Part shown: positions 18,201 through 53,606 of the stretch, one piece after another
Layout of the letters: every line of letters begins with the position of its first letter
Numbering within the stretch: the stretch's first letter is position 1
Assembly: GCA_051294905.1 (NCBI GenBank)
Contig: CM119372.1
Coordinates: 7,628,001 to 7,692,000, forward strand
Source: Botryllus schlosseri
Taxonomy: Eukaryota
Direction: 5' to 3'
DNA: 64,000 nucleotides
Made by a program: the position numbers and the translations under genes
The notes under the pieces: model-generated
Seen by the model: the letters and a program-made list of their open reading frames with translations, nothing else
Database searches by the model: none
Told to the model about the DNA's origin: nothing

Positions 18201-18556
18201 GTATCGAAATCATAATTCTGGTTCATAAATTAACCCCAAGTGGCAAGGAATGTATATGTTCAGTATTTCAGTACAAGGAATCATCTTTGACTACTCGACT
18301 GGAATCATAAGAATCAATATTCGATTCACATTCGAGTACTCGAATCGTCAAGCCTAGCTGTACTCCTGATCTGGGCGTTGATCGCTGCGGAAGTGGCCGA
18401 CTGGCCGTGTCATCAAGCAATTATTGCTTGCGAGTGCGCTACACTGAATCATAATTAGCCTTAATACGATTCATGGACAGTGGACACTGAACAGAGTGAC
18501 TGAATGGTTTTTTCAACACAGGTCCAACACTACTACCGAGTCAGCACAGTCGAAAC

Positions 18557-21500
18557 ATGTTCAAGGGAAAGACAGCAGTAGTAACTGGGGCTTCTAGTGG
18601 CATTGGCCGAGCGATCGCGCTGCATTTTGCCAGTGAAGGAGCATCTCTGTTGGTCACCGGGAGAAACGAAGATAGGCTTGCGGACGTTGCATCGGAATGC
18701 ACGGACAAGGGCGCGGCCGAGGTAAAACGCTCTATTGATAGAGTTGCTCTGTTGTTTGTGGTGTTCATGGTATTTGAAGACTCCTATGGTCAAGGTCACT
18801 TGAGTTGCTCTGTGAAGTAATGTTGGTGAACTTTAGGGAAACATTACTTCCTCCTCCATGCCCAATTGCCCATATTGCATATGTAATCATCCGCATATTG
18901 CACTGCGTATTTGCGGAGTGAACAGATTTATGTAATGATAGTTTATCTTATGAAGGTTTGTTTCAGGTCGTGCAAGTTATCGCTGATCTCTCGAAAACTG
19001 AAGATGTCGGAAAGCTTGGAAAAACTGCCCTGGAAGCTTTCAGTGAAATTGATATTCTTGTGAATAACGCAGGTTCCGCCGTCGTGTGTACTTTCCAAGA
19101 GGTAATTTGAATAGGTGCTATTCCTGAACTGAGTATACTGCAAGTTTAGTAGTTCGCATGCAGTGCACTGTGCAGTGTGCAATCACGCTAAGCGAGGTAC
19201 TTATATTTAGACAACAGTTGAAGAATTCGAAAGAATCTTGAATGTTAACGCACGTGCCCCATTTCTACTGTGTCAAGTCATGCTTCCTGCACTAGAAAAG
19301 TCTGAAGGTACGGGTCCGAGGGCATATCTTCTAGTCTTGGAAGCCTACTGAATCAATTTTTTTTCAGGCTGCATCGTCAACGTATCCAGTCTTACTGCAT
19401 CGCAGATATTTCCCAAGGGACTAGCGTACGGCATGAGCAAGGCGGCTTTAAATCACTTTACTGAAGCTCTGGCGTTTGGTAAACAATCCATCTTGCTTGT
19501 ACTTAACAAACTTCGGAAGGGTGTGATCATGACGAAGGCTAAAACCCCGTTTGAATTTCAGCTGTTTATTATTTTTGAAGTAACACAAGATTCGCAATCA
19601 TAGCGAATGTGATAAAGCAGCTAGCAAGAAGGCGACACGGGCAGACAAGAGTCGCGCTTGTCAATATTGATTAGTGAAGTCTGAAATTGAAACATTGACC
19701 TCGGCACGTGAAAATTTAGATCCAGATTCCAAAACTGTCGCTACCGCTTAATATCACATGAGCCTTGAGTCTCCCTTTTGCGGTATCTCCTTCCCTCTGA
19801 CCCTGTAATTGCCTTTGTAATGCTATACATCGGACTATAACCCATACCAGTGGTTCTCGGGCGTTTTAATTGACGGTCCTATGTCAATTTTTTTCAACAT
19901 ATCGGATCAACTACTTTCCTTTCCAATTGGAGTGCATTTTATAACAGCTTTGGTAGGGCTTACTCCGTGCGATGGCGGATACTTCTTGTTCTATATGTCA
20001 TGAATTTCGCATAGGACACTGGTTTAGGTGAAAATTAACCTTCCAGGCTGAATTAACGTTATGATATATTCTACCTTGCTCTACAAAAGAGCTCAAATGA
20101 TCGGAAGACTCGTGCCGCACATTTTTCAACATATGTCTAGTCGCGGGCAGAAAGCGTCGGATATTCTAGTAAATATTTATCATGGCTGCGGCTATGTTCA
20201 ACATCTTGATGTTTCGACAGAGTGTTCGAAAAAAGGTGTGCGGGTGAACGGCGTCAGGTGAATATATAAGTCTTCTCGCTAATTCTTATTTGCCACAAAT
20301 GGTTGTACATGTTTTCCAGTCCAGGAACAGTGAAAACAAGACAGCTCGCTGGGGAGGGCGGCGAGAACAAGTTATCTCAAGAGGAAGTCGATGCGGTAAT
20401 TGGTTTTTCTTTCAACTGTCTTTCTATTGTCATTATTGTATGTCTACGACTGGTCTGAGCGTACGCCAATAGGACCGTGATGATTCTGATCCCAAGATTT
20501 GTAATCCAATCTAGCAGATTGAGGAGAGCCTGTCATAGGCTACATCGGTGCTTTTACATCTGTGGGATGGTACACACTTGTCGAGGTGAAAATCATATAA
20601 TTGTTACTTTTTTCTGACGTGGAATATTTCAAATGAACTTGATAGGAATTTCAAGTGCAGTGGCTCCCCAACCTTTGTTGCTGTGGCGATATCGTACCCC
20701 AACTTCTGTCGCCGTGGCGCAATCGTAATTGTAATTGTCTCGCCCCAGCTCTGGTGAACTATTTGCGCACTATCAAAAGTACGGCTCGAAAGCGAGTGTA
20801 GTGGAAGGCATACAGTATGCATCGTCATGTCGTAACCAGTGGCACGCGGGAAATGACGTCGAATTAACTCCTGCTTTCTTTCTCCGAACAATCATCATAT
20901 TTTCGTAACAACGGCTCGATTAGCACGGGGCGCAAGGCAGTAGCAATACATACCATCATTACTGACTCGCATTCTGCGAGCAAGCATTTTTCACTCGTGG
21001 AAAACCCGCTGTATTTTAAAAAACAGTGCTGGGTGGTTCTCGAAGACCTGACAAACCAAGCACTAGACCAGGGGGTCTTGAAGGTGGGCCACAGGAGTAA
21101 TTTGAGGTGGGCCACAGAGCTATTTGGAAAATTGAAAAAATAGTGGAAGTTCAGTTACATTTTCATATTCATATATTCGTAAATATTTATTCATATTATC
21201 GAATTATACGTATAGGCTAAACTTGAAACTTTTCATCCGACTCTGATGAGATGTATACAGTGGCACGTATGGAGTCGCAATGTGCAAATCGAAAATGGGA
21301 GGGGAAAGGCGGGGCTGTTGTTCCCCGCCTATGACAACCTGCGTCCGACAGCAACGACAATAATTTCGATTATATAATAACTGGAAGTTAATGCTGAAGT
21401 AACCAAGGATTCCCGCAGTGACATTCGTCGTATGCCCTTGAAATGGTACTCTGACTGAAATGTAGCTACTTGATGTAGATCTATGGTAGGCCCAATTCGT

Positions 21501-32242: not shown

Positions 32243-35200
32243 CTACATGTGGCCTCGCAGCAACTCGTTGACGTCGATGCACGACTCGAATTGGTCCGGC
32301 ATCTCGTCGTAGTCCATGCTCGGGTTTACGTCGTTATGGGGGAAATTGCTGTTACTACCGGCCTCGGACGCTCTGTAACGGAGTGCAACGTGTTTTGTCT
32401 GGTGCGTCATCACGGCGGGCGCGCGTTTCGGTATATCGATTTAGTCGCCGGGAAAGTGAAAAAACGAAATAAAACCATGCTAGGCGCGAGAACTCGGAAA
32501 ACCGCGAATTTAATGCGGACGTGTTCAAAGTACCCTTCGTTGGTACTCGGGTAGAATCAGAGACTACCGAACAAGCAGAAGATTAAGTATTACGGACGTA
32601 GTTTTGCCTAGAAAACTGACAAGAAGTGGGTCTACTATTATTATTGTCCAGTAAGCACCGAAGTAGGCTAAACTACTGAGAGTATACGCACCATGTTACT
32701 GACAACCTCATGTAAATGCTTAACTATTTCTGTGAGAAAGCAGGGCTTTTGAAGAAGAACTTGTAGTCCGAAAAGGTGAGTAAGGCGTAAGCGAATCGAG
32801 AATTCACCTAGAAGCCATGCTCTATAAACAGGCCTATATCGAACTTATTGCTGCGAGCTGCTGCTAAGACTGGCGGCATTTGCAACAATAGTTTTATGTG
32901 AGATTAGCTTGTTATTTTCTATAAGTGCAAGGCAATTTGATCTGACCGTGTCGGAAATTCAGTACTGGCGTACTTTTGTTTCCTAAGCAAACATCCAAAC
33001 AGCAATGTCAATAACGGATCGTTAACGTTGCGAGGTTAGTAGTGTTACGAGAGCCAGTGTTATGTCTCTACGACGTACAGGCAGCATTTCACATGATATC
33101 GAGAATGCACGGGGCGTGTCGGCTGGCATCAAGGCTTACACATTGCAACGCGGAAGATTTTCTCAAATCCCTACATTGGGTTCAGAATTACAAGTGAAGT
33201 CTTCCCAGCTATAATATTCTCAAAGTGCCACAATGGGTTAGGATCAGAGTCCGGTTTATGGGTGTGGGATGGGTTTTTCTGGTCTTTAGTTTCTCAATCC
33301 ATCACATTGGGCTGGGAGTGGGTTCAAGTTTCCAAGATATAGGACAATATTTCAGTTTATTATTTGCTTAATGCATCACATTGGGTTGAGATCGGCTTCA
33401 GGCTTCAAGACAGGAAAAGTTATTCCGTTTACATTTTGTCCGGATATAATTTTCTCGAGGCACTGCAGCAAGTTTAGGATCCGGGTCTAGTGAAAGGGAA
33501 GTACCGCCAGAAAAAGAGTATGCGCGTGCCATCGGACTCGTACACGACAGCAATCGACCGTCATAAGCGACAAGTCAAATTAAACAAAGCATGCATGCAT
33601 TACTAGTAAGGCTCACCCGTCGCAAAATAAGAAGGCGGGCGGCGATCCGCTGGACGAGCGTGTAAGTATGCGGCAACAGTCAACGCATGCACATATGATT
33701 CCATGCAAAACAAAAAGGCAACGAGACGCAATTTAGTTTGCGAAATTGCAGCCCGATTATAACAAAACGTAGCGAGCGAGTCCAACTTAACAGAAAAACG
33801 AATGCATAGTCGAATGAAAATACTCACACGTCAAACGGAATCGGATTCCCAGAGTGCGAATTTGAAGGGGGCGGAGAATTGTGAGGCAGTATCGACGCTT
33901 CGTAGGTGCTTTGCGGCGTGCTGGGGGCGCTGTTATCGCTGAAAAAGCTTCCGAACTGGCTTCTGAACGCGACAAGTATGATGTTTGACGAGTGCTACGA
34001 CGCGATAAGTGTGCGCCGGAAATACTCACCCGGGATTCGACATTGACGGTATCTTCTGTATGAGATGTGTCTTGACATAGCCGTCTTGGGCTTGAACTGA
34101 AAAGAGATGCGTACACGATGTTCTTACGCCGGCAGATTTAGACAACGAAATTATTCTAGTTGCCTAAATAATGCGAAATGTCGGTAATCTTATCTACTCT
34201 AATTCGTGAAATGTCGCTATGTTGTAATTCTAATCTAATTTCGGGTAGGCCTATTCCTGGAAATTCTCCACGACGACTGTATACTGCAAAATGAGCCAAT
34301 CTCGGCACAGACCGTGGTAGACATTTGCCATTCTCGTGCTTATCGGGCATGAACTCTGATTTGATACGAACTGAACTTAATGTATGTTGAGTTCATTTGC
34401 GATTAAAATTTAATTCAGTAATCCTAATTCTAGCCCAATTGGGAATAAACTGTGTCTCGCTATAATTCTAATTCCAATTTTATTTGGAAAAGTAAAAAAT
34501 TTTCGAGCAGTCCAACTCTGTACGGCGGCGCCTTGAATGGATTTCAGCGCCAAAACGGTGCATGCACTGCATCCGTTATGTAGGCACAGAATTATCGGCA
34601 CTTGCATTTTCCCATGTTCCAAACCAAGTCTGCAACATCACTACCGATAAAACACTAGGGCTGGGGATGGAGATTCTCGAGTGGTTGCCCGACATATGAG
34701 CATGCGACACAATGGAAAACGACAGTTCAACATGGGACACTTCAGCATGTGACTTCATAGTCTAAAAGCTTTCCCTAACCCGAAACATAGCCCTGAAATT
34801 AACCCTTACATATATCCTAACCCCAAGCCTAACGCTAACCCAACCATATATCCAGCCCTAACCCACCCCTAACCTGTAATTTAACCCACATGCTCATACG
34901 TCCGCGGACCGATTCGAGTACCAATTTCCTATATATGTGTCGGAGTGGTGAAAGTCTATGATTTCAAGTACGTTCCTCATTATTTATTGATGGAAATTGT
35001 CGTTGCGGTATCGTATTGCCACTGTGAGAGCCTTAAACCCTCAACACGAGATGGCACATCACCCAATACATGCAGTAGTGAGCTACCAAGTTCATGGCAA
35101 CGAATTGAATCGTTATTACATGCTACTATCCTAATTTCAAGCAATTCATATAAGTAATTGTAGCTGGCGTTATTGACTTCGTGAACGCATATTAAGTATG

Positions 35201-38200
35201 TATTTGGCCGCTTTTAGTCGTTACGGTTGATGCATCATAATGCGGTAATGCGGGGTGCTGGAATACTCAAAGCTTCATAATTGATTCGTATCCAATATTT
35301 CACTGCGTCGGCCTTATTTATTAATCAGAAAAGCCAGGCTGCTGTCCACACTGACACTGAACAGGCCGCGAAAAACACGTCGAGACGGCAGACTCACTCG
35401 AACTGCTGTCCGACTTGTTATAGTATTGTCCGAAAGCCTCGTCTTTCATCTTTGTCGTGTCGTCTATCTTGCAGAGGTACATGAGCTGGTCCAGGTCCTT
35501 GATACGGTCGGGCAGCGAACGAATCGAATAGTCTCGCAGCGTTTGCGGCTGTAAATTCCAGACCTTCGCCACCCCTGCAAACATCATGGTCGTTTCCAGT
35601 TTAGACGACAATGTTTCACGACCGCTGCCGACTCGTTCTGGTTGACACCGGTTGTTATGATCCAGCAACAAAATATACATAATCAGATCTACGATACGGC
35701 GAAATCACACATTTGACAACAATATTTCACGGCTGTCAGCGAGTCTCGCAATTCTTCCTAATTGACGCCGATTGGTTCAACCCGTCTACGAATGGGGCAA
35801 CAAAATTTGCACATTCGAATCTACGTTATGTCAAGAATGCAGACTTGATGACGCGATATACAAAGATATCGTTTGCTGTTCAATCGACACCGACACAAAC
35901 GCATCAAAGTGGACACTAGGGTGGTCTAACAAACGAATTTTGTAAAGTTGTAGGTCTGACCCTGCCTAAATGCTCCTGTGACTGTTGTTTCTGCCTGTCT
36001 CACAGAGAACGAGGTGCGGCTGTAGATTGCATTTGGAGTTGTTGCTGACCTCCGCAAAATGTACCGTAAGACCCTGAAGCAGACCAAAATTATTATATTG
36101 GTCATCATAACACCCCAGCCAATGATCAGCTAACAACCAGACGAGGGAACCCAGGCTTTCGAGCATTGGCCCAATAGCAACTATTGAAGTGAGTATATGT
36201 GTTCTATACCTAATATTAGGGTTACCGGGTACCATATTTTGGAAATCTGAAAAGAGGACACTTTTTCAAAATTCCGAGTCTTGTAATACCGGAGGTAAAT
36301 CCTGAATTTTTTTTTCATATTTCGTGGTCGGCTGACCACAAAAAAAGAGAAACTTTCCAGCTCAACTCCCAAAATACGGTTTTTCTTTCACATAATCCGT
36401 TGGTTGACTGAAAAAAAGCTGCCGAAACAGCCGCCAAAGCGTTACTTCAGTGCCAATTTCGTGCATCTCATTCGAATTTCGCCCTATATTTGAGCGAAAT
36501 TCTCAAAAAAGAGGACAAATCCTCTTAAAAGAGGACGTATGGTAGCCCTACCTAATATGGGTAGAAATTCGGATTCATTGAGCGCTGAGCCCCCTGTAAA
36601 CATTAGTGAATAGGAATAAAATTGACACAGGATGTATTTTAACCAAAAGGAACATTCCAGCAGGATCAGACCAACGACTTTCCAAAATTCGTTTTCAAGG
36701 AACGCACTATCAAGATACTGAAGAATGTTTGATCGCATCAATCAAAACATACCATGATCCTCGGCGACCCAGGCGATGGTGAGACCGCCTATCTCGGAGT
36801 CGGAATATCGCAGGAGAAAGGTTCTGTTTGGCTTCGACAAGAGTTTATCCTGCGATTCGGCCTTACCGATAAATCCGATGATCGCTCTGAGAATCAAGAG
36901 TTGACCTGAGATTTTGAAACCAGACGAAGTCATACCGATCTCGGAGAGACGATTGATGGGATCGGTACCAGCTGGCAGACAAAAACACCCCAGATGAAAA
37001 TGAAAACGTGTGTATTACGGCTGTTCAAAAATAACTATTTTTTTCATATTTTTAGACTGCTTGATAAACTCCAATTCCAATTCCAAAACTGTAGAAGCGT
37101 AACTATAAGAGTAGTAGATTTTGGATATAAAAAAATGGTAATTACGGTGGGATATTCTATCATCAAGAATTATGGAATTACCTAGTGTAAATACTGTTTT
37201 TTTAAATTCCAAAATTTGCTACTATAACTTCGCTTTTATGGGTTGGAAATGCGCCAAATTTGTTACGTATCGTTTTTTAGACAAATTGACAATTTCTATT
37301 CGCTAGCAATTCTTGGAAATTTGTTTTTATTTTATCTAACAAATCTGAAATTTTCTACTCTCATAGTTAAGCTTCCGCAGGTTAGAATTGAACCTAATTT
37401 GATGTGCAGCGTTATTTTCGCCAACCTAACAATTTCATCAAACAGATAGACAAATTTGAATATAAGTTATTTTTAACAGTCCTAGTGTATATAAACAGTG
37501 GAGGCCTACCAGAGGTGGTCAAAGTAGTCAAGAAAGCTACTCAAGTAGAAGTAGAAGTAGCGACGAAAAAATCTACTCAAGTACAAGTAGAAGTACTTCT
37601 TCCATAAGCAACCTAAAACTACTTGAAGTAGAAGTAGAATTTACTGACTTGTACAGTACTCAAGTAAGTAAGTAGTGGTGAAAACGATCCTAATTCGTTC
37701 ACATTGATTGTAAAAAGGTGCAAATTGAGTTATGCGAAAGTTGTATAGGATACGGTGTGAACACTTTGCGTGATTAGTAAACGTTAATAAAAAATATGGT
37801 GGACCGTAAAAATGCCATATTGTGTAGCTTTATTGCCGGAAATTAAAGGCATTACTACACTTGCTTTTATAATTCAACATGTATGTTATCCAGACAAAAG
37901 AACTCATATTAATTAAAACTCAAAATATATGATACTGGGAATTAAAAGTGAAATATAAATACTACTTCTAAAAGTGGAGCATGTATTTCATGCCTTTAGT
38001 CCAGAAAGTTTTAAATGTGGTGTGCTAAAACAGCTCTAAAACTAAAAAAAAGTCAGAGTCCACATTTTCAGATTAGTACACGCCATGGACATGCTAGATT
38101 ACGATATGACAAGTAAATGCTAGATTACGAAACATCAGTTTCAAACGTTATGATGAGCCATATATACTGTGATGAATTATTTCATATGGGCGACAATGTG

Positions 38201-41200
38201 GTGTAAACGGAGCCACGCCAACCCGCGACCTAAATTATATTCACCGATACTTTCGTGAAATCATACTGGTCCCTCCGTATCCACTGCGCGAAGCTTTACT
38301 CAACTTTTGTAAAAATTAAATGTTGATACTCCGTGAAAACAGCCCCGAAATTTCTCAGGCTATCTTCCGGATTGGAAGATTGAACTACTTCTACTTGACA
38401 AACTGAAAATAGCGAAAAGTAAGCAAGTAGATCACAAAATATTACGAAATAGAGGTAGCGAAAATCAGATCTACTTGAGTAAGTACCAGAAGTAGAGGAA
38501 AACTACTCGAGTACTTTGAAAAAGTAGAAGTACTTCGTTACTGACCACCTCTGAGGCCTACACCCTTTTCGGTTTAATTGGGTGAAATAACGTACCCGTC
38601 ATTCCAGTGAACTTGAAGGTGTTTGCTTTTCGTAAGCTCCATCACGCCGTTAAACCACTGCCAAAATGTGAAGTTCCTCTTTGGTAGCGTTTCCCTGTTG
38701 AACTGCGCCCACGAAATGTTCTTCTCGGAATTTGGCATTACGGGTTGTTCTGCGGTACACAACGAGTAATTTCCCTTGGATCATCGCAAGACTTGGAATA
38801 GCGCAACGCGAGTATGAGCCACATAGTGAAAAGGATTCAAAATAGCCTTCATTCCTTTTCTATATATCGACTTGAGAGTATAATGCACAGTGGAAATTGA
38901 ATATTGAAGTTCTGTACCTCCAAGTTGGAAATTGAAAATTAAATAGGAAATGCAGTGTAGTAGTGTACCGCAGACAACGTCACGCTTGTCCTTAAGATAT
39001 TGTAAACATGACAGCAGAGGTGTCAACATTCAAATCGAAATACACGCAGGTTCTATTGGTTAAATACTAGTCAGAACTTGAGATTACCAGACCGCAATCT
39101 GATATATTGATGTCGCTTTTCGTTTTGTCTTTATGTTATATTCTAGTACTTTTCATTCAATGTGGAATGTGCATGCCTCCGCTTTACTGCGTCTATGCCA
39201 GGGTGGATGTCTGATTAAAAGACTTCTCCGACTTCTTTCGCCACCTTCCTATCTTTTCACTGTATAGCAATCTTGTGGTGTATTGATTGGATAAAATTAA
39301 TAACAAACTGAAGTGAAGGTGGTCAGTGACCAAGTACTTCTACTTTCTCGGAGTACGCAAGCAAGTTTTGCCTAGTTGACTCGTTTTTGGATTTTGTGAG
39401 GTAGAAAGTATTTTTGGACTATGTTTACATCTCTTTATGAGTGAAATTGTCATATGAACTTGGCAAAACAGCACTGTGTCGCAGTAACTACACATATTTT
39501 CGAAAATTGCGGCTCACGGCTTCTATCTCTAATTGAGTACCAGAGCTGACTACTGCAATCCCCTCTGCATGACTGCGTCATACACTACATATCTAAAATG
39601 TTGACCCGCATTTTGCCATGCTTCCATAGAGCGAGATACTCACTAAAAATTTTGTAGGCAAGATACTGTTTCGCTTGTGAAGTCAGTCCCCGGTCACTTC
39701 TGGTTTCGTGCTTCCATTTATGGTCGAGGGCCTCGATCAATTTCGCCCACGGTACTTTGTCCGGCACTTGAAACGGTATCCGCCCCTGACACAAAAGCGA
39801 CAGTGATTATGGAGACCAACCCGCTATCGCAACATTCTCAAAGCGCCAAAGTACACTGAAAGCCATCAAAAAAGTGCGTCATCTTTCCTTACAGATAGTA
39901 TCATAATAACGGATAACCTCTGTCGCCCGTGGTGCTATTTGGATGAAGTACAAAGAAAGAGAATCACTCTGACCAAAATTACAATACATTAAGGTGGACG
40001 ACTCAAGAATAACCTTGCAAAGTCTATCATTACATTGTCATTTGTGGCAAGTTGATCGTGACAGGGACAAAATACAAAATTACAGTGACCAACTCGTAAG
40101 ATATACTAAATCACTAGCGATATCGCGGCGTCAAGCTCGACGTCATACTAATGCGTAGTTTTCAACAACCCAAATACATTATCGTGATTGAGCATGCGGA
40201 CTTGAAACAAAATTACAAGGACGGCTCACACATTGAATTAGTTAACGCTCCTCAATTCCACCTGAACGTAAGTGAAATTCATAATTGACTGGTTCAGATT
40301 CGCAAAGGCTATAATTACACCATTTCAATGTCATGCAAGTAATCATAATTTTCTTCAGATTTGCCACGAGTTAACGCCACAAAATTACCCGTAACGATCG
40401 ACAAACATTTAAAATTGAGTTAGCAACCCCCGGCTATCAGTGAGAGGCTGCAAATTATAGCGTGTTTCCGTTTCCATGCCGGTACCTCGTTGGCAAAAGC
40501 ATTATCCCACAAGATGGTCGCTTTGGCATTGCATTCCTGGCTGACATTAACAATCGCAACAATGGGCAACGATATGGCCATAGGCTGAATGCAAAGAGAA
40601 ATAGCCGTTAGCACGATCTCGATGTGTTTACCTGTTCGGCAAATGCGTTGTCCCACAGTATACTGGCGGCTGCGTTCGCTTCTTGATTACCATGGACAAT
40701 CACGACCACAGGAAGAGATAAAGTCTGGTAGAAACACACGACAAAAACCTTTAGTTACGTAGGTGAAATGATGTCAGACAGAGTCCTTGGAATTGTTTAA
40801 TAAACAAAATTGGCATTACATTTTCGGCAGTCACAAGACCACACTTGAGCCTGGCTTCAGGCAAAATCGCTACCACTTTCGGTAGTAATCCGTAATTCCA
40901 ATAACAGCGTAGCTTGATTAACCATTCAACCGAGAATAGATCGAGCATTAATGTCTCGCCGCCTTGTCGTTCAATTACAATAGGGTACGTAGTTTCCTCA
41001 AGATATTACACTCGTGTTATATTGCTTCCTGCGAGCCATGAAAATATGGCAACTTCCTGCCTCAAAATGAACGCGCACGCGCCAGATCAAGCCTCTTACA
41101 AATCCGTATTTAATTAGGTACTATAAGCTAATCTGTATCGTGTAGGATTGAACAGTGTCTTCAACAACATGTAACTATGGACGAATGGTACCAACTCTAT

Positions 41201-44200
41201 CATCAAAGTAAAATGGTAGGATCAAGTTGTGATGTCATTCCTCGAGCACTTGAGAAGCCACTCGATATCAGGACGTTCTACAACAATGATTCTGTTATCA
41301 ACTGGTATCATTTAAGATGACATAATCAAACGGTCCTACTTGAAATTCACTCGGAAATTCAGAAATAAACGTAGGCCGATCGAGGCGCATTGTCAAAGAA
41401 TTGTTATTTACTATGACTCCTGACATTTGAAGTCTACGCATTCTACGCACGCACAATTGCAGATAACTAATGAGGTATCAAATCCATCCCGTCCAAGTCT
41501 TGACAAGGAAAAGGAAACAATCAGTATCTTGCGCATCAAACATATTGTTGATGGGACGCTACCAGTAGACTCGGTAAATGTATCTACTACAAGTGGTGTT
41601 CAATTCTACAATGCACAATCTCAAAACAAAACATTAACACCGGATTCCGTTATATCCGGTTGAAATTTAGATATAAAACGCGGTGGCAGCTAAAAATAAC
41701 AGTTGCATCCACCGGTTTGTCTTGGACAGGGCCTTACAAAATGATTAATACTGAGCGATTTGCGCAAATATTACCCAACAAACGTTTCAATTATCAACGC
41801 CCGAATGAGATGCACCGTTAAAAATAACACCAAGATAAACTTAATACGAATATCTTAATTTAGTTCGAAAAATTCCAGATACATAGTTTCCACATTCATT
41901 CATCCTTGGTTTCGTTCCGAAATTTAATATTACTAAATCCGCCACAGAGAAGCATGCTGTTATCAAACGTGAATATCTATAAATAACGCACATCATCATA
42001 AGGTACATCACAATGGCCCCACGGTGGAAATACATAATTTATTATTCCAAGGAATACCAATGGGAGCAGTTGGATGAGACTATCACACAATAGTAGACCG
42101 CTTTGGGAAAACAGTAGGCATTTACTGTAAAAGCGCCAACGTATGTCTACACTTGGACATCTGTTCTCGGCAAAACACAAATAAGCAGTAGTAATAACCT
42201 AAATAAACACCCCAGTGCGAAGATTCTGCTATTTCCTGTTTTGTAGAAGAGAAAATGATGAGACATTACGAATACTGAACAAATATAACTATAAACTATG
42301 CCCAGCGTGTTATGTTATTTGTGTGTAGGATTGTTATAAGTGTAGTTTCCATGAACTACCTGCATCATTGACTTGTTAATCATAGAGAAGCGCAGGAAAC
42401 TAATGTGACATTACGAATACCCAAAAATAGAACTACAAACTATGCATAGTCAGCCGAGTTACTTGTGTGCAGCATTGTTACAAGAATCGTTTTTCGTACT
42501 ACCTACCGATGTACAATAGCCAGAAACTATGTATCACAATGCATCACGACACGATTACCGACAATAGGAGAGCGCACCGAAACTTGTTCCCTTCATCCTT
42601 GGGTGAGGTTAAAGCCAGCGGCATAGTTAATAGATTTCGAGAGAAGAAAAACAATTTTCATGCAAAACCGAGACCCCGCGAGCCGCGATTACCTGCCAAT
42701 GAGCGTCTCATTGACAGCGTAGATCTAACACTGCGGCATTCAACGGGAAGCACACATCCTAAACAATACCGAGAATTCTTTATGGCAGCGTCCAATTACC
42801 GCGCTAAGACGAGGTTAGCATTCGCGTTGTAATTGTGGCACTAATCAAGCTCACCCGAACTTGAAACACCAGTTCGTTACCGCCCACGCTGAACTGCGAT
42901 TGAAACAAGACGGTGAACTTCTCTTCCGTCACCGACTCGGCGCCGCGCTTGTCGGAACGTTTTATCCTCCGCAGAGACTGCAACAGAACACGACGTAACA
43001 CACGCCGAAAGTCATTTCCTGAACATTAGCGCGACATACCATGTTCCTGAAATTGACGCTTAGAACGCCCGACTGGGGATGGTACTCCATCACGCTTTCG
43101 CGGTTCAGAATTTCGCCGCTCATTTCGCTCAGGCTGGAATTGTGAGGATCGGGATGTAAAGCAATGCACGCCATAATGGCTAGGGTTCAAAGTAGCAAGC
43201 CTATCGTAGACTGAAAACAAACATGCATTCATTCACATTTTATAAACAACATGGGGGCCGAAACGGTTCGTAGAGGTCACCGGCCAGCAGAAGAATAGTG
43301 GGTGCATTATGCAGGGTTGCCATTGGTATGGATAAAATACCAAGGCCAGACAAAAGTTCTCAAATGGTTAAATGTGAAATATGTAAACTGATCACAAAAT
43401 TAAAAATAGGTCAACTCCTTGGTTCAGCCAGTCCTAATATTATGCGTTCTCGGCCATTTTGCCGGGCTGATGGTTAAAATAGTTCATACTTTAGTACTTT
43501 TACGACCTCAGTGTCAACAATGAGGACAAATCTTGGAAGTGAGGACAATGTAGTTTTACAAGATATCTTCCTTCGAAATGAGGACGGTATGACATGACAA
43601 CCCTGGTGATAAGTTTGTGTTCTTGCCACGCAAAGCGTTTCTACAATGTCCACTGTTGTAAGATGACAAACTACAACACTTCTCAATATAGCACCATTGT
43701 ACGATTAGTAGTTCACAGCAGATCCTACTGACAAGCAGAAACTACTAAGGGAAAGCCATCGTTTATTTACTGCAGCCAGCACAACATAACCGGACCAATA
43801 GGATTTTGAGAAAGTGACAGGTTATGACCGTGTTACGACTGATATCTATTAGTCTACTCTACTAACACAGAATAGTCAGTGCAGTTGTCTGGCACTGGCG
43901 AAAACAAGAGTTAAGTTTCAGTATCGAAGATACTCGCACTGCTTACATATCGTCAGGTACACGGCTATTTATCATATAGATCAATGGATGGCAACTATGC
44001 GATTCCGACACATCCTTTATACCAAAGTCACAAACCGTCAACTTTATATCATAAATTTAGGAACATCTAACAGGAATAGTATTATGTCTTATAGTAAGAA
44101 TCCTGGTTATTACTCTCGTGGAAATTACCACAAAATCATGTCGGAAAGCGGCGTTTCTTACGAGCATTAGCACACGTATCAATAATTTATTCATAGAACA

Positions 44201-47200
44201 ATTAATAATGGGAAATGGTGCCGTGCAACATGAATCTTCGACGCATTCTAGCAATTGGAACGCAATTGCTGAATTGATGGCTACAGACCAAGGATCGCAA
44301 TATAATATCCAGTTCCATCAAAGAACACACAGAGGCATAGCAACCTTTGCAATAGCAGACTTGGCATTACTTCGGTATTCAAAATGCAGAAAAATACATA
44401 TTTGCTGAAGTCTACAAAGCCAATACCAACGTACAGCGACTTCTACTGTCCTAGGGGTGCTGATTTTAAAATAATGATGTAAATGCACAGAATGCTCCAC
44501 TAAAGAAAAACACTGACAGCCAAGGTCATAACAGCATAATAAGCCGCAGAGTGGTATACAGACAAATTAGAACGAGTTGACCTGCACCATTTAATAGAAA
44601 ACAGCTCATAAAGTACTATTCCTGTGGTACCGACATGATTGCACAGCAGGGGTGTGCATGCGTAGATTGTATGACATCGAGAACAGATGCCTATCTAATA
44701 ACCAGCCCAGTGGTTCTCAACCCTTTTGCCCTCATGGACCGTGATCCTTCAACAATCAAAATGAATCCCAATTTTCATTACGACCGATGCACGATACTCA
44801 AATGTATATTGTGATTTGTGAACTTCAGTTCTGTGCCCCCTTTTGCTAGCTCTTATTACACGACCTCCAACTTGATCGTGATTGTCCGGTAAAAGAAATG
44901 CGATGCATCTCGCTATAGAACTCCATCGTAGTGCTAGTGTCGTTTAATTGCACTGTCGGAATTTAACGAAGTTTGTTCAGAAGTCTCCGCAGTTTCCACA
45001 TATAAATTGTTCGAAAAGAGTCGTAGCCTACATTGAAACAGTTGCACCATTGTTACATACGCCCAAACTAGACTATAAACCCTCTAGTACGACATAACGT
45101 AGAAAATACATTGGCAGCTTATCAATCAATTTATAATTTGATGTTTCATTCCACTAATTAATGAAAAAGCGTCAGTCTTTTCGCATTTTGGAACTGAGAT
45201 ATAAAATTCTAGTACAGTTAGTCGACGGATAGGAAACTTGACACGGGCTGGCTGTTGAGAACCACTGAACCAACCTGTTTTTGAGCCAATTGCTAACTGA
45301 GCCTTTTTAAATATCAAGATCGTAAAGTCGTAGTAACGTTCCACCATTACAAATGAACTTCAAGAAGTACAAGACATCAGTGCAAGTCGCAGAGTCAGAT
45401 AATTGCGCAGGTGTATCATTTAGCATAAGAATGCGAACAACCCCGTTCCACAGTATAATAAGACTACACCGGCATGTTGAAAGCAGCAAATCCAGAGTTA
45501 ATTAAAAGCAACCAACCTCCTGCTTTCATTTTTTAATAATGCTTTGGCTTGCGCCTCGCTGATGATGCTGGCTTTTACCGTAGGCGGATTCATATGTATA
45601 TTGAGTTTGCCTCCCACCAGTAACCTGATGGTAGCTCCGAAACGTGTCTGCGTCTTCAGAACTTGCGGCGGCTGCTTCTCGATTATAAAAGTGCTAAACA
45701 AACACACGCAATCAATGACCTAATTCAATCCGCATTATGTTAACACGTCGTCGCGGCCTAGGGTACTTACACCGATTTGGCCTACTTCAAACCAATAAGA
45801 TACATGAAAATACGCCAGAAAATGACACCAGGAAATAGCCATGAAACAATCGACAGAATTTAGAGAGGCAAATGCATTCCTTACATAAGACAGACTATAA
45901 GCGATCAGCCGCATCACACTTGTTGGGATTTAGACATCGACGGTCGTCCATCCTTGACGGAAAATATCAAACAGTGACATCGACTGCAATTGGTAGTGGT
46001 AGCTTATATATTTTTCTTTGCTGATGGAATCATGGGTCATTGTATTGTGCCAACAACTTTAGTTGAGATAATTGGTAAAATGGTGCTAACTGTAGCACCA
46101 TAACTAATACCACTACCCAAAACAAAAACAGAAGATTATGGCAACGGCGGTGTCAACAGTTCACAAAACAATGCTGTTGACAAGCCAGCAACGGTACCAA
46201 CACATAGGCAGCTGAATGATACTTTTACGACGGATTGGTCCATTTCTACCCCAAAGCCGAGAATCGCTACCGAGATAAAACTACACAAGATCTCGACAAA
46301 ATTCACAGCACATGCCGTTATAAAAGCGATTATACATTAACCATCCAATTATTCGGATATTTCACCTCCACCCCACCTTCCACAGTAGACCTTCGAGAAT
46401 CGCCAATTTCAACTTTACACACTACTAATCATCTCTTAAGTATAGCTCACAGGGCAGATTTCAATTTCGACCAGGGAGTACCCTCACACATATTTATACA
46501 AAGGTCATGGAATCATTTAGTATCACTGAGCTACGATCAATCAGTATTCCATGATCGACAATAAAGGGGCACTGCACTATAAAAGCGATGTGGTCTCAAA
46601 TTGAAGGGTAAAACGAAAAAAAATATTTTGCCACAGCCATTTTCTTGAGAACACCACCGTCCAGCAGTCACACAGAGATCAAACTTTATAGTTGTTAGCC
46701 GAAGTTGTGAAGGAAATATGTCGTGCACGCCAAGGTGGTTTAGATACCGCGTTTAACGGAAGATGTTCAGTCAGGAGATTTATGTCAAAATCAGGCCTAG
46801 TGTATTCTATTTCTTTACGACAGAAATAGATCATGTCCTATTGTTATGTATAAAACACTGTTAGACATGATTTATTTCTGTCTTGAAGAAATAGAATACA
46901 CTATGCCCAATTTTGACATAGATCTCCTGATTGAACATCTTCCTTTGAATGCGGTATCTAAACCCCCTTGGCGCGCACCACATATTTCCTTCATAACATC
47001 GGCTAACAACTATATAACGTTTGATCTCTTCGTGACTGCTGGAGCGTGAAGTTTTTGTGGAAATTTCAATAAGTTACAGCTCGTTACGGTGGCGTTTTTT
47101 CCGTTTTGCCCTTCAATTTGAGACCAGGTCATTCTTAGAGTGCAGTGCCCCTTCAAGACACGGCCAAAAGAAAAGCTATCAGAACACCAGACTGGTCGTG

Positions 47201-50200
47201 TATGTCATGGAATTTTTAGCTGAGAATCCGAAGGGGACGAAAAAAATAATGACTGAACGTTCAAGTATATGGCTATGACGTTATCGCGCAGATCACCGGT
47301 ACCAATGTAATATTTCAGCAAGGCAGACACTATGACGCGCCTACATAGATTACGTCAAGGGCAACAGCACCATTCGAATAAAACCATCCGCACCTCGTGA
47401 CTAGAGTGGACAATAAAGCCGTGATAGTGGAATTCAATTCCGGAAGTAGATCCCGACCCGGATTGTTGATCGGTAGCTGTTGCCGTTGCAGTTCGACCTT
47501 CTTAATTTGCTGACGGTTCTGCCAGATGATTTCGGCTAGTCTTTCACACCTGCAAAACCAACAACGTCCTGTCGACGGCATATTTTGTACTCGCTCGCTG
47601 GCTTTCACACCCGACCGATCATCTCAAAATCGCAGTGAATTATACGTCACACTGGCGACATGATCAATGTCGTGGAACGTGCCAAAACAAGCTTGATACA
47701 CACACAACCTGTTACAGCCAGCGAGCTATACTCAATTTAATCATAGCTTGTCAAATTGTTTGAGCCAAGTCTACTCTACAAATCTACATAACGTTCATAT
47801 TATGCAGAGAGTTGACACATAACAGGCAAACCAAGTACGATTATTGAAGACAGCACTATGTAAACAGTCTTTGGTACCTACTAAAATAACTGAAAACAAA
47901 CAAAAGCATACACAACATCTCCTACGTAACGCCATACCATTGTTGCAGCTGATCAAGATTGTTTTCGTGCTGGACGCCATTGTAGGCGAGCGCCTGGGCC
48001 CGTTTCCACTGGATTAGTTCCTCCTCTAAAATTTGACTCTGAAGTTGCGACAGCAAAGAGAACGTTTCCTGATGCTTATCGGCAACACCCTGAATAAACA
48101 AGGGAATAAAACCACGTGAAACCACAGACGGAACAAGTCATGTATAATTTGTGGCTCGACCAGATAAGAAAAAACAAAGTATAACCCACGAAATGCAGTA
48201 TCCGTTCATCATTAGCTCGAGACTTGACATCAGCCAAAACGAAGACACAGCGGACCAATATTTAACCAACATACCTTCACTAAATTCAGATTAACCATAA
48301 CCATCAACTTAGTTGACCCTGCATGTTTCCACCACAGGAATTAGCACTTTCGACAACACAGAAGACATCACCACGCGCTCTACGCTCTATTTTCGATCGT
48401 AAAGAGACCACCTCGCCTAATCCAAGGCCACAGAATAACTCGGTAAACATACCATTCTCAGCTGAAGAAGTTTCTGCGCTTCCAACCTCAAGAGCGAGTC
48501 CACGTCGTGTTGTTTTCGGATTAGTTTCTGTTCCGCTTGGATTCTGTCTGGGTCGCTGGGGAGGAGCTGTTGCACCTGCTGCAAATGCGCTGCAAACAAA
48601 AAAACGCTGCTGTAGGGAGTTGTTATCAGATTCGAAACCATAGCTTGTCAACGACAATGGCCTCAAGGTGTATTTTTGACAGGAGTATTTAATGCAGCAG
48701 CCTGCACGTGCTGATTTTGCAATCAGTAGAATAGTGGGGATTACATACCTGAACTGGGATATTATTATGAAAGACAAGTACAAAATCAAAATCTGTACGG
48801 TAGTTCTAAATCAAACTGTGCTGTGCAATTCCACCGAAATCCTATTGGACCATATTACTAAAACCATATCACAGAATTCGAATCAGTACTTATCAAACTG
48901 TAGCGTGTAATTCGACAAAAAACATATTTGACCATATTACAAAATCCGAATCTGCAGTTGTCAATAAACTGTGCTGTGCAATTCGGCCAAAAACAAACCA
49001 ACAACACTATTCAAGCGACATTGGAAGCAGCAAAATGCATATAGATCAATTCATGTTTCTGCCTCTTATCCATTAGCCTCAAAATGACACGGCAGCACAT
49101 AGGCTACTAACAAAAGTTCCAGTTTATTGAAAATGAGAACAGACAGGATAGAAGGACATATGCTTCTACTTAACTATCATATTACAGAAGAAATCTAGGT
49201 AGTTATATTTATATACTAAATTATATAATATTGCATACGTGGGCCTGGTTGATTTAGTCTCCAAATAAAGGAGTTTGTATACATCTAAACTCCATGTTGC
49301 AATATTTAAAGTTGTGCAAGTCCAAATGAAAACTTAACTTTGAGTTCCTATCATCAAAATCCAGCTCTTTCAGCAAACTGACATGAACAAACGGGAAAAA
49401 AACATGTCTTATACATTTTTCAGATCAGATCATTTCAATGTGGTGACAACGACCTTCAGTAGTATATTCATTTCAAATTCAAGACTACATCACACATGTT
49501 AAAGAACACTATGCATGCAACACTCCTGCAACACACCCAGATGAAAAATCTGCACGCATCTAGTTCTTCAAAATTCCATAATACTAAACACTAAACAATA
49601 ATTAATCTCAGCTTCGCAAACAAAGTTCGGTATTTGCCCACCCGATTACCACGGATATCCAGGAGAAAATACCATCTCAACTCAAACACGTCATGTTGTC
49701 AAACAGAACTGGCAAATCAGAGAATAGTGGACTTCATGGAACCCATCGCAGGCAACAATCTTACCTCACTGGCAAAATACCGCAAGTTCAATTGAACATT
49801 ATCTCAATAACAATATCAACATCAGCAGAACATTAATACGCCATTAAAATTTTCTTCAAGAACCACTTTTTGCCAGAAACTGATTACAATTACAAACAGT
49901 GAGTCAGACATGTTGATAGCAATCGGCCTTGCCACAAAATCATATCAACGAGATCGTAGTTGCGGCAAGGTAAAAAACTTTGAATTTTAGAATGATTATA
50001 CCCAGCTTTGGTGCAGCTGGACAATATTGGCATATTGCTTTATCAAAATTCTTCAACTCAATATTTTAGGTATATATATTGTATTGAACTCATCAGAGGA
50101 CCTCATAATAACCTCCATGGCAATTATCAGCAATAACTTACTCCGAAATGAAAGTACTTCAAGCGACAAAATGTTAACAGCCCAGACCCCATTTATCAGA

Positions 50201-53200
50201 GCTAGGATAGACAAAGCCTCGCAATAATTGGCACAACGGAATCGTCATTACATTACAGGTACTATATTTCATGAGAAAAGCCTTTTTAACTTGGGACGCG
50301 CCATAACTGTTGGCAAAGGGTGCTGTGCGTTAGAGAGGCCTACACAAAAATAGCAAAATTGGCATGGACAACTGCAGTACACATTACCAAGCATAAGGAA
50401 ACGCCCATGTCACAAGTCTATTTATTTCCGACTTGGATACATACCAGTCTAATATTTGACAAGTGATCGACGTAACGTATCTGCACGCATCACTAGAGAC
50501 ACACTATCACAAAATAACTTAGTCGCATGCCAACGAGAATGTAATGTCGATAAATGACAATGCTATACTGTATCCATAGCCTAATGGAATAGATATTTCT
50601 GTCACCCGTCACACATTTCCACAAATATTGAATGTTAGCACAGAGCTTGTCAGATAACACAAAATGACAACCCTGTTTCTGTGCAAAACAATCAGAAAAT
50701 AGTCAATGGAGAAGCCCCAAGAATTCATACACACTTATATTTCCAAGTAAAACGCACACCCGCGAACAATCATACTTATATCCATATACTTACAACTGAT
50801 TTTAAGACTCTCTTGATAGTGAATAACGAAATATTCCTGTTTAGATTGTAGTTTCCTGAGGTCATTGTCGGTGTCACGAGTCATGTTTGCCAGTGTTTCG
50901 AGCTCCTGGTTTATCCGAAGCACCTTCTCGGTATGTTGCGAGAGATGCGTCAACGCACCGCCGTCTCCTAGCTGTTAAAACACACCGAGCGTTTGCACAG
51001 AGTGCATGAAAAACAACACAAAAGCTGCATCACTTACCGAGTTTGATTGATTGACAAAACTGGACTCAGTTGCTAAAATCTTTTTGGCGGTTCTGACCAA
51101 TTCCAATGGAGCTGGACCGTAAATATTCTGCAATGATGGAATATCGGGCTAAATTATAATTGCCGGTAACGGAATCTCAGACGTATGCTCATAGAGTCAA
51201 ACCGAAATGGCAATATGTATGCAGAATAACAAACCCGTCTCAAGTTATCATTTGCAGGGAAACTGAACTATGAATCATCATAACAGGATAGATTGACAGA
51301 TTTTATTTCATGTTACCGGAATATCAATAAAGCTCCAGTATGCACCGACGCAGGTGCCACCTGCACAAGTTCCCAGCGGCAATATTTGGCAAGAGGATAC
51401 AATAAATGTATAAACCATAAAGGTAGGTAACTGGAGTAAAAAATATTTGATAGAAATCTCTTTTACCATAGGATATCATCTCCGGCACGGAATTAGTGAA
51501 CCAATGCACTCAAAAATAGAACTACATCAGCGGAGAACACTGGTGTTCGAATCAACGCTAAATCATTATACCTAACTGCTTACACTTGAAGACAGATTAG
51601 CGCAAATCACAAATTACATGCAATGCGCCATCCAGCTGTTCATTATGATATCTGTTTTGATAAATTAGATTTAAAAAGTCATCGGGTTTCACCCTTCCAT
51701 TAATCTTCATATAGGTAACTGCACTGCAGACTTGATTTACGACGTCCCAGATAAAATATTTACAAAGCGCACCTTGAAATGGTTAGCGATCTCACTGAAA
51801 CGCAGTCTTTGAAGGAAATCCCGCGCCTCTGTGAGACTGTCGCATTGTCTTTCAATATCGGTCAAGAAGGTGTCCAAAATATGCCTCGCGTGAAGTTCAT
51901 CGTTGATATTATCCGGGTCTAATTGATCCCTGGTGGAAAAAGATAAGTCTTGGTGATCGAGTGGTGGGGAGCCAAAAAAGACATTGCACAGACCATCGCC
52001 TGCTTTCAATGAGATCGGCGAAATAATGACGGAATTCAATAGGAAAATTCGGACCGTACAGGTTCTGAAGTTGTTGCAATGCATCTCCTTCCAACTCCCG
52101 TACTTGGGCCCACAACGACATCCCAGAGCCTTGATTGTGGTCTAAAAAGCAGGAACAGGATGAAGCGGCAATTACAAACTGTAGTGTATAGCCTACATTT
52201 ATTAAGATATTGAAATTGCACATCTTGGAGGGGTCACGTCATGGTGATGCATATTTTATCAGCATAGACAGAGTTATCGAATTACCAACTATGGACCCTA
52301 CTCGCGATGATTTAGTTTATTGTAATTCCCCACAATGTATGTGGGTGCATGTTCAATATAACTGATAAAAAGTTGTGCTGATTGTGCAGAAGAATGGCAA
52401 ATCGCAAGTAGCGAGAAAAGATTTTGTCAAAAGACTCATGAGCATGAATATTGCTAAAATAGTTGAGCATATGCCTGTATTTATATTTTGACTGTATCTT
52501 AGCCTGATTTAAATTTCGTTGAAATGCCCAAGACCAAGCTAAAACTAAAACTAAAAAGCTAATCAAAAAAGTTACGATTATAAAATTTCAACTCAATAGC
52601 AATAACACCATTGAAAGAGTGATTAGATGTAGCCCATGAAACGGACGACTAGGAGATCCCCTATCTAGACTAAACCCCAAGGCACAATTTAATGAGAAGA
52701 ACCATAATCGGAATTGTGAAAAGAAAACCAAGGAAGTCAATAAGTATGAAATTGTAATAAAAATGTGATCGAAAATCACAAAAATTAGTAATACAAAGTT
52801 GTAAATAAATTACTAGAATCCTAGATCTGTTTTAGAAAATAAGAAAGGTTTGCGATTTTGTAAATCAAAACCAAGTGGGCTAACACTACACAGTTCTAAT
52901 TATCAACTCAAGCATAAAATCTTTTTGACCTTAAAATTGTGCTTGGTGTTAATTGCTTCATGCATGGGTGGACACCTCTTCCTGGGTAAATATTTCAATC
53001 CAACAAAAACCACCATTCCTCAACAAATTTTATAGTGCATTTCTATTGTATTATGTATTTTCTCAACTTGCTTCTCAGACGCTAGACGCTACACAAAGAT
53101 TACAAAGATGAAAGACTAATAATAATATACATACATACAGGGGTATGGTCGATACAGCTACTGTTATACACACATTAATGATGCCATACAAAGAATCAAT

Positions 53201-53606
53201 AACAAGCATTGTTATATAACATATAATTGTGGAAAAAAGAGACCAATTGCCATACGTTAGGAAGTAGGCCTACTTTGATATAAAAAGGATTATCCATAAT
53301 AAAGTTGCATAACAAAATAGCCTACTTGGAAGCCACCAGAGCGCAGAAAACTGATTACAGGCAGAATTTGACATGCACATTAACATAATAATGCAAATTG
53401 TGTGCGAGCTTATTGCAAATAGCGACAAGGAATGAAACCACATGACGTAATTCACAAAGTAAAAAAATTAACCTTAACGTCATCATCAACATTCCACATC
53501 CATGAAATTTTCGAACCGAATCTACCATAAAGAAAATACACACTTTACCTATCCCGGCCGGTTCCATCTTGATATTAGACATGCCATTTGGCCCATTTCG
53601 CTGCAT
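32243..53606 (-). CDS. STAT5-like: STAT transcription factor, STAT5-type, ~833 aa, 19 coding exons with one mutually exclusive pair
   Basis: Exons (minus): 53606-53549, 52141-51994, 51929-51773, 51127-51038, 50971-50794, 48589-48453, 48089-47938, 47549-47394, 45693-45517, 43133-43040, 42977-42855, [40724-40632 or 40584-40486], 39785-39644, 38749-38596, 36886-36753, 35574-35398, 34096-34030, 33962-33828, 32372-32243. All are GT-AG with consistent phases. Motifs: MSLWAQ...[14 protein letters not shown] (N-domain), [19 protein letters not shown] and [11 protein letters not shown] (DBD), FTFWQWF (linker), [13 protein letters not shown] (SH2), DGYVK (phosphotyrosine), DVNELLR (STAT5-like tail). 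Confidence 0.95.
34683..34910 (+). mobile_element. MITE with telomere-like internal repeats (degenerate copy)
   Basis: Same family as 56241-56536 (GGTTGCCCGACATATGAGCATGCGAC...CGGACC). It contains CCCTAACC-like repeats. Confidence 0.7.
36217..36550 (-). mobile_element. TAGGGTTACC-family hAT MITE (inverted)
   Basis: Reverse-complement homolog of 9365-9680, with exact TSD CCTAATAT (36209-36216, 36551-36558). Confidence 0.85.
37016..37484. mobile_element. AT-rich MITE related to 57866-58484
   Basis: TACGGCTGTTCAAAAATAAC / GTTATTTTTAACAGTCCTA termini with near-TSD GTGTGTAT/GTGTATAT. Confidence 0.6.
37510..38553 (+). mobile_element. AAGTA-repeat hAT MITE in a STAT intron
   Basis: TIR CAGAGGTGGTCA / TGACCACCTCTG, exact TSD AGGCCTAC (37502-37509, 38554-38561) and AGTAG/TACT subterminal arrays. 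Confidence 0.88.
40486..40584 (-). CDS. STAT5-like: STAT DBD exon variant B (STAT1-type NVSQ): [33 protein letters not shown]
   Basis: 99 nt, phase 0/0, acceptor tttctctttgcattcag preceded by a ctaac branch motif, donor gtaccg. It is an open paralog of variant A with 19/31 aligned residues identical. Confidence 0.82.
40632..40724 (-). CDS. STAT5-like: STAT DBD exon variant A (STAT5/6-type): [31 protein letters not shown]
   Basis: 93 nt, phase 0/0, acceptor tttctaccag, donor gtaaac. It matches the STAT5 segment [28 protein letters not shown]. Confidence 0.93.
44708..45267 (+). mobile_element. hAT MITE in a STAT intron
   Basis: CAGTGGTTCTCAAC / GTTGAGAACCACTG with TSD AACCAGCC/AACCAACC. Confidence 0.78.

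Follow-up and report, generated by a model that had tools for sequence, protein, structure and literature searches.

How might an animal obtain two kinds of DNA reader from a single STAT gene? The question is raised by a stretch of 64,000 nucleotides from the ascidian Botryllus schlosseri (assembly GCA_051294905.1, contig CM119372.1, positions 7,628,001 to 7,692,000 of the forward strand), henceforth the window, whose minus strand carries a STAT5-type gene, orthologue of the ascidian 'STAT-b'. STATs read DNA by very few direct contacts. One residue, Asn in STAT1 (N460) and STAT3 (N466), His in STAT6 (H415) and STAT5 (H471), contacts the bases (PMC5737217; PMC5359187; both cited here and below from their accessible text), and it is the only one with direct hydrogen bonds to them (PMC5737217). 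The preliminary description of the locus had named this position rightly. It proposed that two tandem exons, one with His and the other with Asn, let alternative splicing give one protein either a STAT5/6-like or a STAT1-like mode of recognition. Judged by comparison of sequences, the exon pair appears to be pan-ascidian and mutually exclusive and to toggle the base-contacting His/Asn of STAT5, its Asn member being used in relatives; one such gene is probably able to yield both a His-type and an Asn-type reader of DNA. The reading that we favour, and consider likely, is that of such a pan-ascidian pair in a STAT5-type gene, with the His exon (A) as the main form in the organism of the window and the Asn exon (B) as a minor or conditional one. 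The elements concerned are the following, in window coordinates.

32246..52121, minus strand: STAT5-type gene, orthologous to the ascidian 'STAT-b'; extent given from the start codon (MSLW) through the final coding exon.
42855..42977, minus strand: constitutive DNA-binding-domain exon ending ...VFQVR; 3' end in phase 0; joints 40724>42855 and 42977>43040; Pfam STAT_bind positions 84-123.
40632..40724, minus strand: exon A, His type, HGNQ; 93 nucleotides, 31 residues; cag/ACT...CAG/gtaaac; His codon CAT at 40692-40694.
40585..40631, minus strand: A-B intron, 47 nucleotides; CTAAC branch-point-like motif at 40607-40611.
40486..40584, minus strand: exon B, Asn type, NVSQ; 99 nucleotides, 33 residues; cag/CCT...GAG/gtaccg; Asn codon AAT at 40546-40548.
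39644..39785, minus strand: constitutive exon beginning GRIPFQ, start of the linker domain; 5' end in phase 0; joints 38749>39644 and 39784>40631; Pfam STAT_linker.

Both exons lie exactly where they had been placed by the preliminary description. They are open, in phase 0 at both ends, bordered by AG and GT sites of their own (the acceptor of exon B comes with a pyrimidine tract) and divisible by three in length. An alignment without gaps shows 19 of 31 residues and 56 of 93 bases to be identical. Adjacent, homologous, of like length and in the same phase, each with its own splice sites, they have the traits of a tandem-duplicated exon pair. Among 177,635 sequences of solved chains, exon A matches STAT5A, STAT5B and STAT6 (best STAT5A/5B, with an expectation value, E, of 2.8e-10), and exon B matches the same segment of the same proteins (E 3.1e-7), while the STAT1 and STAT3 chains match the two exons much more weakly, at 13-16 bits. 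Compared by codon position, A and B agree at 21 of 31 first positions, 25 of 31 second positions and 10 of 31 third positions (Fisher p 1.4e-4); the proportion of synonymous differences between them (pS) is 0.94, that of non-synonymous differences (pN) 0.24. By these alignments the exons are true paralogues, far beyond chance, and the duplication is ancient, both copies having remained coding. The idea that the open frame of exon B arose by accident, or through faulty annotation, has the exon's short length in its favour and nothing else. Set against the E of 3e-7 to the solved STAT5/6 chains, the orthologues with conserved splice sites described below and a codon-position pattern that is that of coding sequence, it deserves practically no credit.

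What do the two exons present to the DNA? The His of exon A and the Asn of exon B (Asn13) align with the His column of STAT5/6. The residue position is identical in vertebrate STAT5A/5B and STAT6 and in STAT1/STAT3, and exons A and B align over the HG(S/N)Q columns. The loop of exon A, V-H-G-N-Q, consists of the STAT6 residues named in PMC5737217, and that of exon B, V-N-V-S-Q, combines a STAT6-type Val with a STAT1/3-type Asn. This Val falls at a position of the pocket that accommodates the thymine methyl groups, made of S459/Q463 in STAT1 and V414/Q418 in STAT6, with S465 as the STAT3 counterpart of S459 (PMC5737217). Exon B has the Asn of STAT1-4 at the base-contacting position, but not the Ser of STAT1-4 at the pocket position before it, where it has Val, as V414 in STAT6. 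Overall it scores about 32 bits to the solved STAT5/6 chains versus 15.7-16.4 bits to STAT1/3. The description of exon B as STAT1-like does not hold for the exon overall: only N-V-S resembles STAT1, and the exon is a STAT5/6-type segment carrying Asn, not a STAT1-type segment. From exon A it differs at 12 of 31 aligned residues (the His/Asn exchange and 11 others, including a conserved Lys or Arg), with two residues added.

The gene around the pair is well delimited. Its RNA evidence comes from three contig runs of three studies (X1, X3 and X5, marked 'RNA?') and from a raw-read RNA run, X23. The spliced contigs support 14 GT-AG introns between 35574 and 51994, and the flanking exon ends named beforehand, 42855 and 39785, are both RNA-supported junctions. 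It had been anticipated that either exon alone would complete the frame, and so it does: the slot lies between two phase-0 boundaries, so that A, B, both or neither all keep the frame. Joined by their coordinates, the exons make a single open frame, along which the translations match, all over cut-off, STAT_int (PF02865, 53.5 bits), STAT_alpha (PF01017, 27.6 and 58.9), STAT_bind (PF02864, 60.4 and 36), STAT_linker (PF21354, 47.1 and 38.8) and SH2 (PF00017, 30.9). This is the domain order of the STAT family, namely N-terminal interaction domain, coiled coil, DNA-binding domain, linker and SH2. A tblastn search with the Styela clava protein P0082 places all the exons, the 3' ones down to 32246, and aligns with 34044-34100, in a predicted exon with a candidate C-terminal tyrosine motif after SH2. 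Over 697 residues the gene model is 89% identical to this Styela STAT5B-like protein, 77-80% to the STAT-b of Phallusia and of Ciona and to Clavelina STAT5B-like, and 68% to Oikopleura; identity is 59.5% with Callorhinchus STAT5A and 34% with a STAT6-like protein from fish. Over its whole length the aligned protein is closest to STAT5, and the assignment to the STAT5 subgroup, made from the start, stands. Ciona is described as having two STATs, of which STATb is nearest to STAT5 (Wang and Levy, PMC3670131, accessible text).

It is in the proteins of relatives that exon B is seen in use. Twenty-seven tunicate STAT5-type proteins, obtained by a search with the upstream exon and from the members of 90% clusters, were screened between ...FQVR and GR(I/V)PF: 21 have A, five have B in its place, one has neither and none has both. 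The carriers of B are isoforms X1 (XP_078482924.1) and X3 (XP_078482935.1) of Ciona intestinalis, isoforms X1 (XP_076824335.1) and X3 (XP_076824338.1) of Clavelina lepadiformis, and STAT-b of Phallusia mammillata (CAB3266641.1). In all five, exon B is spliced exactly in place of exon A, and the B forms are two residues longer than their A partners (851 versus 849 residues, for example), matching 33 versus 31 residues. The protein with neither exon is a model from Ciona savignyi (P0222, UniRef100_H2ZMV3), in which FQVR is joined directly to GRIPF. A profile search of short proteins (16-105 residues) gave, among 100 of its 120 matches, no tunicate fragment with B spliced to its neighbours; the Asn type appeared in those 100 only in the genomic read-through open reading frames (ORFs) P0001 and P0002 and in the arthropod-like P0244 and P0277. 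Could it be common for both exons to enter one transcript, A followed by B, with 33 residues added? Double inclusion is in frame, so that nonsense-mediated decay would not remove it. Yet both exons occur together in 0 of the 27 proteins, exon A is followed in the RNA contigs by the constitutive exon beginning GRIPFQ, and the A-B intron measures 47 nucleotides versus a minimum of 62 for the 14 supported introns, so that we find tandem use scarcely credible.

Conservation tells more about exon B. A scan of 1.84 billion representative proteins with this exon (E up to 0.001) yielded 60 matches, 54 of them His-type, three without the motif and three with an Asn-type copy. The last three are P0001, a read-through ORF with A, 84 nucleotides and then B, its A identical in amino acids to that of the window; P0002, with an intact B 94% identical to the window's; and P0005. 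A scan of metagenome contigs gave 67 loci, two of which, L001 and L002, carry an orthologous A, a 53-nucleotide GT-AG intron and B. There again the amino-acid sequence of A is that of the window; because their downstream exons are Phallusia-like, these loci appear to come from a distantly related ascidian. Exon B is intact in six other ascidian-type sequences, which bears out the expectation that it should be conserved in relatives. Nineteen columns are invariant across the seven B-type exons, including IVNVSQE; the window's B has all of them, and N-V-S-Q is exact in 7/7.

Between the window and L001, exon A shows pN 0.014 and pS 0.87, its amino-acid sequence being identical, as it also is in the Styela clava, Ciona and Clavelina proteins. 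Exon B evolves faster, with pN 0.169 and pS 0.773. In spite of 30 base differences, with synonymous sites saturated and flanking introns barely alignable, it keeps 23 of 33 residues, its frame and both splice sites; when the same 30 differences were placed at random, none of 20,000 replicates remained open with at least 23 of 33 residues. By this pattern of substitution, exon B is under purifying selection, not a relic.

The history that we propose is as follows. A tandem duplication of the exon for the DNA-reading loop would have preceded the divergence of the ascidian orders, and the two copies would serve as mutually exclusive alternatives. At the one position that forms hydrogen bonds with bases of the TTC half-site, exon A has the His of STAT5/6; exon B has the Asn of STAT1/3, although its segment otherwise resembles STAT5/6. 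Exon A would be the main form in the organism of the window; exon B, minor or conditional, would be spliced in that species too. The B isoform, alone or as an A/B heterodimer, may read a somewhat different set of gamma-activated-site (GAS)-like sequences.

Several facts weigh against this reading; they concern, in turn, splicing in the window's organism, the means of exclusivity and the recognition of DNA. For exon A the reading is borne out: the junctions that had been predicted for it (42855>40724 and 40632>39785) are found in 3/3 contig runs, as joints 40724>42855 and 39784>40631 (cut +1), with A included and B skipped. For exon B, none of the 15 joints listed, out of 48, reaches 40486 or 40584. 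By rough arithmetic, depth over the bin 40229-40809 is about that of exon A alone, with scant margin for B in any of X1, X3 and X5 (in X3 the observed mean is 13.3, where A and an intronic contig together would give about 13.1). Run X23 has zero depth in the same bin, over exons A and B alike, hence is uninformative on B. The Styela clava RefSeq isoforms in the cluster are 4/4 A-type. The RefSeq XP_ proteins with exon B are predictions; variants of this kind need transcript support, and the Phallusia record CAB3266641.1 presumably derives from mRNA. The donor of exon B, GTACCG, is weak, which fits exon A as the default.

One may then suppose that exon B, functional in other ascidians, is no longer spliced in the species of the window or its near relatives, where it would persist as a preserved silent relic. 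The lack of a B joint among those listed, the depth accounted for by A, the four Styela isoforms and the weak donor would all agree with this. However, the window's B keeps its frame, both splice sites and all 19 invariant columns, although saturated synonymous sites versus L001 mean that there was ample time for decay; P0002 has an intact B 94% identical to it; and contigs, which lose rare variants, cannot show absence. We regard a silent relic as unlikely. The RNA contigs neither show nor exclude the use of exon B in this organism, because contigs drop rare variants. The proposal that one gene makes both forms by alternative splicing is supported by the Ciona, Clavelina and Phallusia proteins that have B where others have A; in the window's own organism A alone is seen in RNA, among the joints listed. 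That exon B is a genuine alternative coding exon in this species too, we hold to be probable.

What would keep the two exons apart? The putative branch A of the A-B intron lies 24 nucleotides from the 5' splice site and 23 from the acceptor, and the shortest of the 14 RNA-supported introns of the gene measure 62, 64 and 66 nucleotides versus 47 here. A branch point so near to the 5' splice site blocks the splicing of a short intron, as it does between exons 2 and 3 of alpha-tropomyosin. In the favoured reading exon A could not be joined to exon B, and one of them would have to be chosen; exclusivity in the window would owe much to the 47-nucleotide intron, because a branch point about 24 nucleotides from the 5' splice site should bar A-B joining. 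The likeness to tropomyosin, a short intervening intron as putative steric block, has its limits: the intron measures 47 nucleotides in the window, 53 in L001/L002 and 84 in P0001, and the block is not assured. Since it reaches 84 nucleotides in one relative, steric blocking cannot be the general mechanism, and the inference is weakened further by the small introns that some tunicates tolerate. Other mechanisms do not take its place. An incompatibility between U2 and U12 sites is unlikely, both exons having ordinary GT-AG sites. Nonsense-mediated decay is ruled out as the enforcer, double inclusion and double skipping being both in frame. Competing RNA structure is not supported either, the fold of 40440-40780 being unremarkable (z = +0.28) and matched or bettered by 66 of 100 shuffled sequences.

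Does the swap change the sites that are read? His/Asn exchanges had been presented as changing the preference between TTC and GAA half-sites three (N3) or four (N4) nucleotides apart. STAT5, a His-type protein, already prefers N3 sites. For STAT6 H415N a shift of preference from N4 towards N3 is on record (PMC5737217; PMC5359187). The claim is supported in one study, where STAT6 H415N has its N4 binding lowered and its N3 binding raised and STAT1 N460H does the reverse (PMC5359187), but not in another, where STAT1 N460H examined by Spec-seq gives the wild-type logo, with no change in half-site or spacing and the N3 preference kept (PMC5737217). The role of the residue in site choice is thus disputed between the two studies. 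The null result for N460H, together with the N3 preference of STAT5, means that a large change in specificity is not assured; in view of that preference, the change may lie in the half-site or its flank, not in the spacing. A shift of site preference from A to B seems plausible from the residues concerned, and we would put a real change in DNA-site preference between the two isoforms at an even chance.

Exon B could as well be real and the change from His to Asn leave the choice of sites as it is, B tuning affinity, kinetics, cooperativity or partner contacts, or making a weak-binding or dominant-negative form. The unaltered logo and N3 preference of STAT1 N460H (PMC5737217) would favour this, together with the 11 other residues at which B departs from A, a conserved Lys or Arg included, and the faster evolution of B (pN 0.169 vs 0.014). 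The converse comes from the opposite effects of H415N and N460H on N4 and N3 binding (PMC5359187), from the fact that this residue alone makes direct hydrogen bonds to bases (PMC5737217), and from the exact N-V-S-Q of all seven B exons, which points to selection on the reading head. We grant this alternative real weight, though short of an even chance. The engineered STAT6 H415N and STAT1 N460H exchange His and Asn at the same position as the two exons do; they are single laboratory mutations, whereas exon B is a natural and conserved isoform with all the further changes counted above.

How does the pair compare with what is known of STATs? In vertebrates His and Asn are found on separate paralogues; here one gene has them on alternative exons. 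The known splice isoforms of the family, such as STAT1-beta, STAT3-beta, C-terminally short STAT5 and the N-terminally short STAT92E of Drosophila, have their transactivation or N-terminal regions altered, and to our knowledge they leave the DNA-reading loop unaltered. Alternative RNA processing diversifies STAT output in both cases, but the A/B swap alters the DNA-reading loop itself. The system had been thought undescribed, and a full-text literature search (subscription papers being outside its coverage) brought up no account of a STAT whose DNA-binding exons are alternative or mutually exclusive. They are likewise absent from the accessible text of PMC3670131, whose account of the Ciona STATs does not mention them there, and from that of PMC12865960, PMC7570057 and PMC11728170. 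The B isoforms themselves are already present in RefSeq and ENA records.

Mutually exclusive exons as such are familiar, with E12/E47 of TCF3 and exons 2/3 of alpha-tropomyosin as examples. Homologous pairs of this sort arising by tandem duplication are a known kind (PMC9741552, PMC8373072, PMC9013439, in their accessible text), and ours resembles them in being made of adjacent, homologous and ancient exons of equal phase, one per transcript. It differs in that STAT is a new gene family for the phenomenon and in that the sole base-contacting residue is toggled. Few transcription factors switch their DNA-binding surface through mutually exclusive exons; STAT would be added to them, in the closest lineage to vertebrates. 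Ascidians have maintained throughout their history a natural matched pair, one protein with alternative reading heads, and the disputed residue can thereby be tested in its native context; Ciona genetics offers a way to learn how a single JAK-STAT pathway might come to have two transcriptional outputs. Exon choice might be a regulated switch that supplies the sole Asn-type STAT reading head of ascidians and redirects one STAT5, as B homodimers or A/B heterodimers, to different GAS-like sites. This is a tentative proposal, on the doubtful side; if true, splicing within one gene would parallel the His/Asn division which in vertebrates, the sister group of ascidians, is spread over STAT5/6 and STAT1-4 genes. 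A bolder version, in which the His/Asn exon pair predates the split between tunicates and vertebrates and seeded the division among vertebrate paralogues, seems to us much less likely, indeed quite improbable.

Exon B has other kin in the genome of the organism (495.5 Mb). A search with it detected at least four copies of the A/B exon, namely B, A and two on contig C8, a count that is a lower bound, the best candidates having been scored; there are likewise at least four STAT_bind matches, two in the STAT5-type gene and two on C8. The C8 copies are His-type (...VVISHGKQ...), and exon B is the only Asn-type version detected. The STAT-like loci of C8, at 24922940-24927315 (+) and 25054647-25060046 (-) of that contig (G000:C8), lie about 130 kb apart in opposite orientation (matches L070, L071, L074 and L075). 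One of the C8 STAT_bind matches contains two TAG stops, which an intron or a broken copy may explain.

Duplications of the reading-head exon are met elsewhere. In an animal sequence from a metagenome contig (L004:133-1522), it is tandem-duplicated as two His-type copies of 31 residues about 1.1 kb apart, each with cag/.../gtaagt sites, and the pocket residue before His differs between them (VVVVSHGNQ vs VVVIVHGNQ); the two copies may be mutually exclusive, as a case of independent origin. Two tandem His-type copies are also seen in yet another record, the read-through ORF P0003. P0004 (860 residues), a fish-like STAT6-type model with a block of about 100 residues duplicated, is probably an artefact of assembly or annotation. 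Three Logan sequences, P0244, P0277 and P0321, are arthropod-like STAT fragments with ...VVVIVNVSQEPLSWAT... spliced to the next exon; the change from HGNQ to NVSQ therefore occurs outside tunicates too. The reading-head exon may be a recurrent site of STAT diversification.

The remainder of the window holds a few minor features, the first of which belongs to the gene itself.

Near 53424-53588, minus strand: possible extra 5' coding exon of the STAT5-type gene.

An ORF at these positions matches the N-terminal extension of a Styela clava isoform, which suggests an alternative first coding exon upstream. Among the neighbours, ORFs at 6698-12680 (-) match BTB (61.8 bits), BACK and Kelch, pointing to a BTB-BACK-Kelch gene, and 18500-19600 (+) matches a short-chain dehydrogenase (adh_short, 45.7 bits). 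Intronic repeats at 36162-39066 and 46564-47153 reach an RNA-contig depth of about 16,700 (run X1) with many loose ends, and a foldback element with 151-nucleotide arms, 89% complementary, lies within them at 46687-47014; these repeats are probably transcribed copies of mobile elements.

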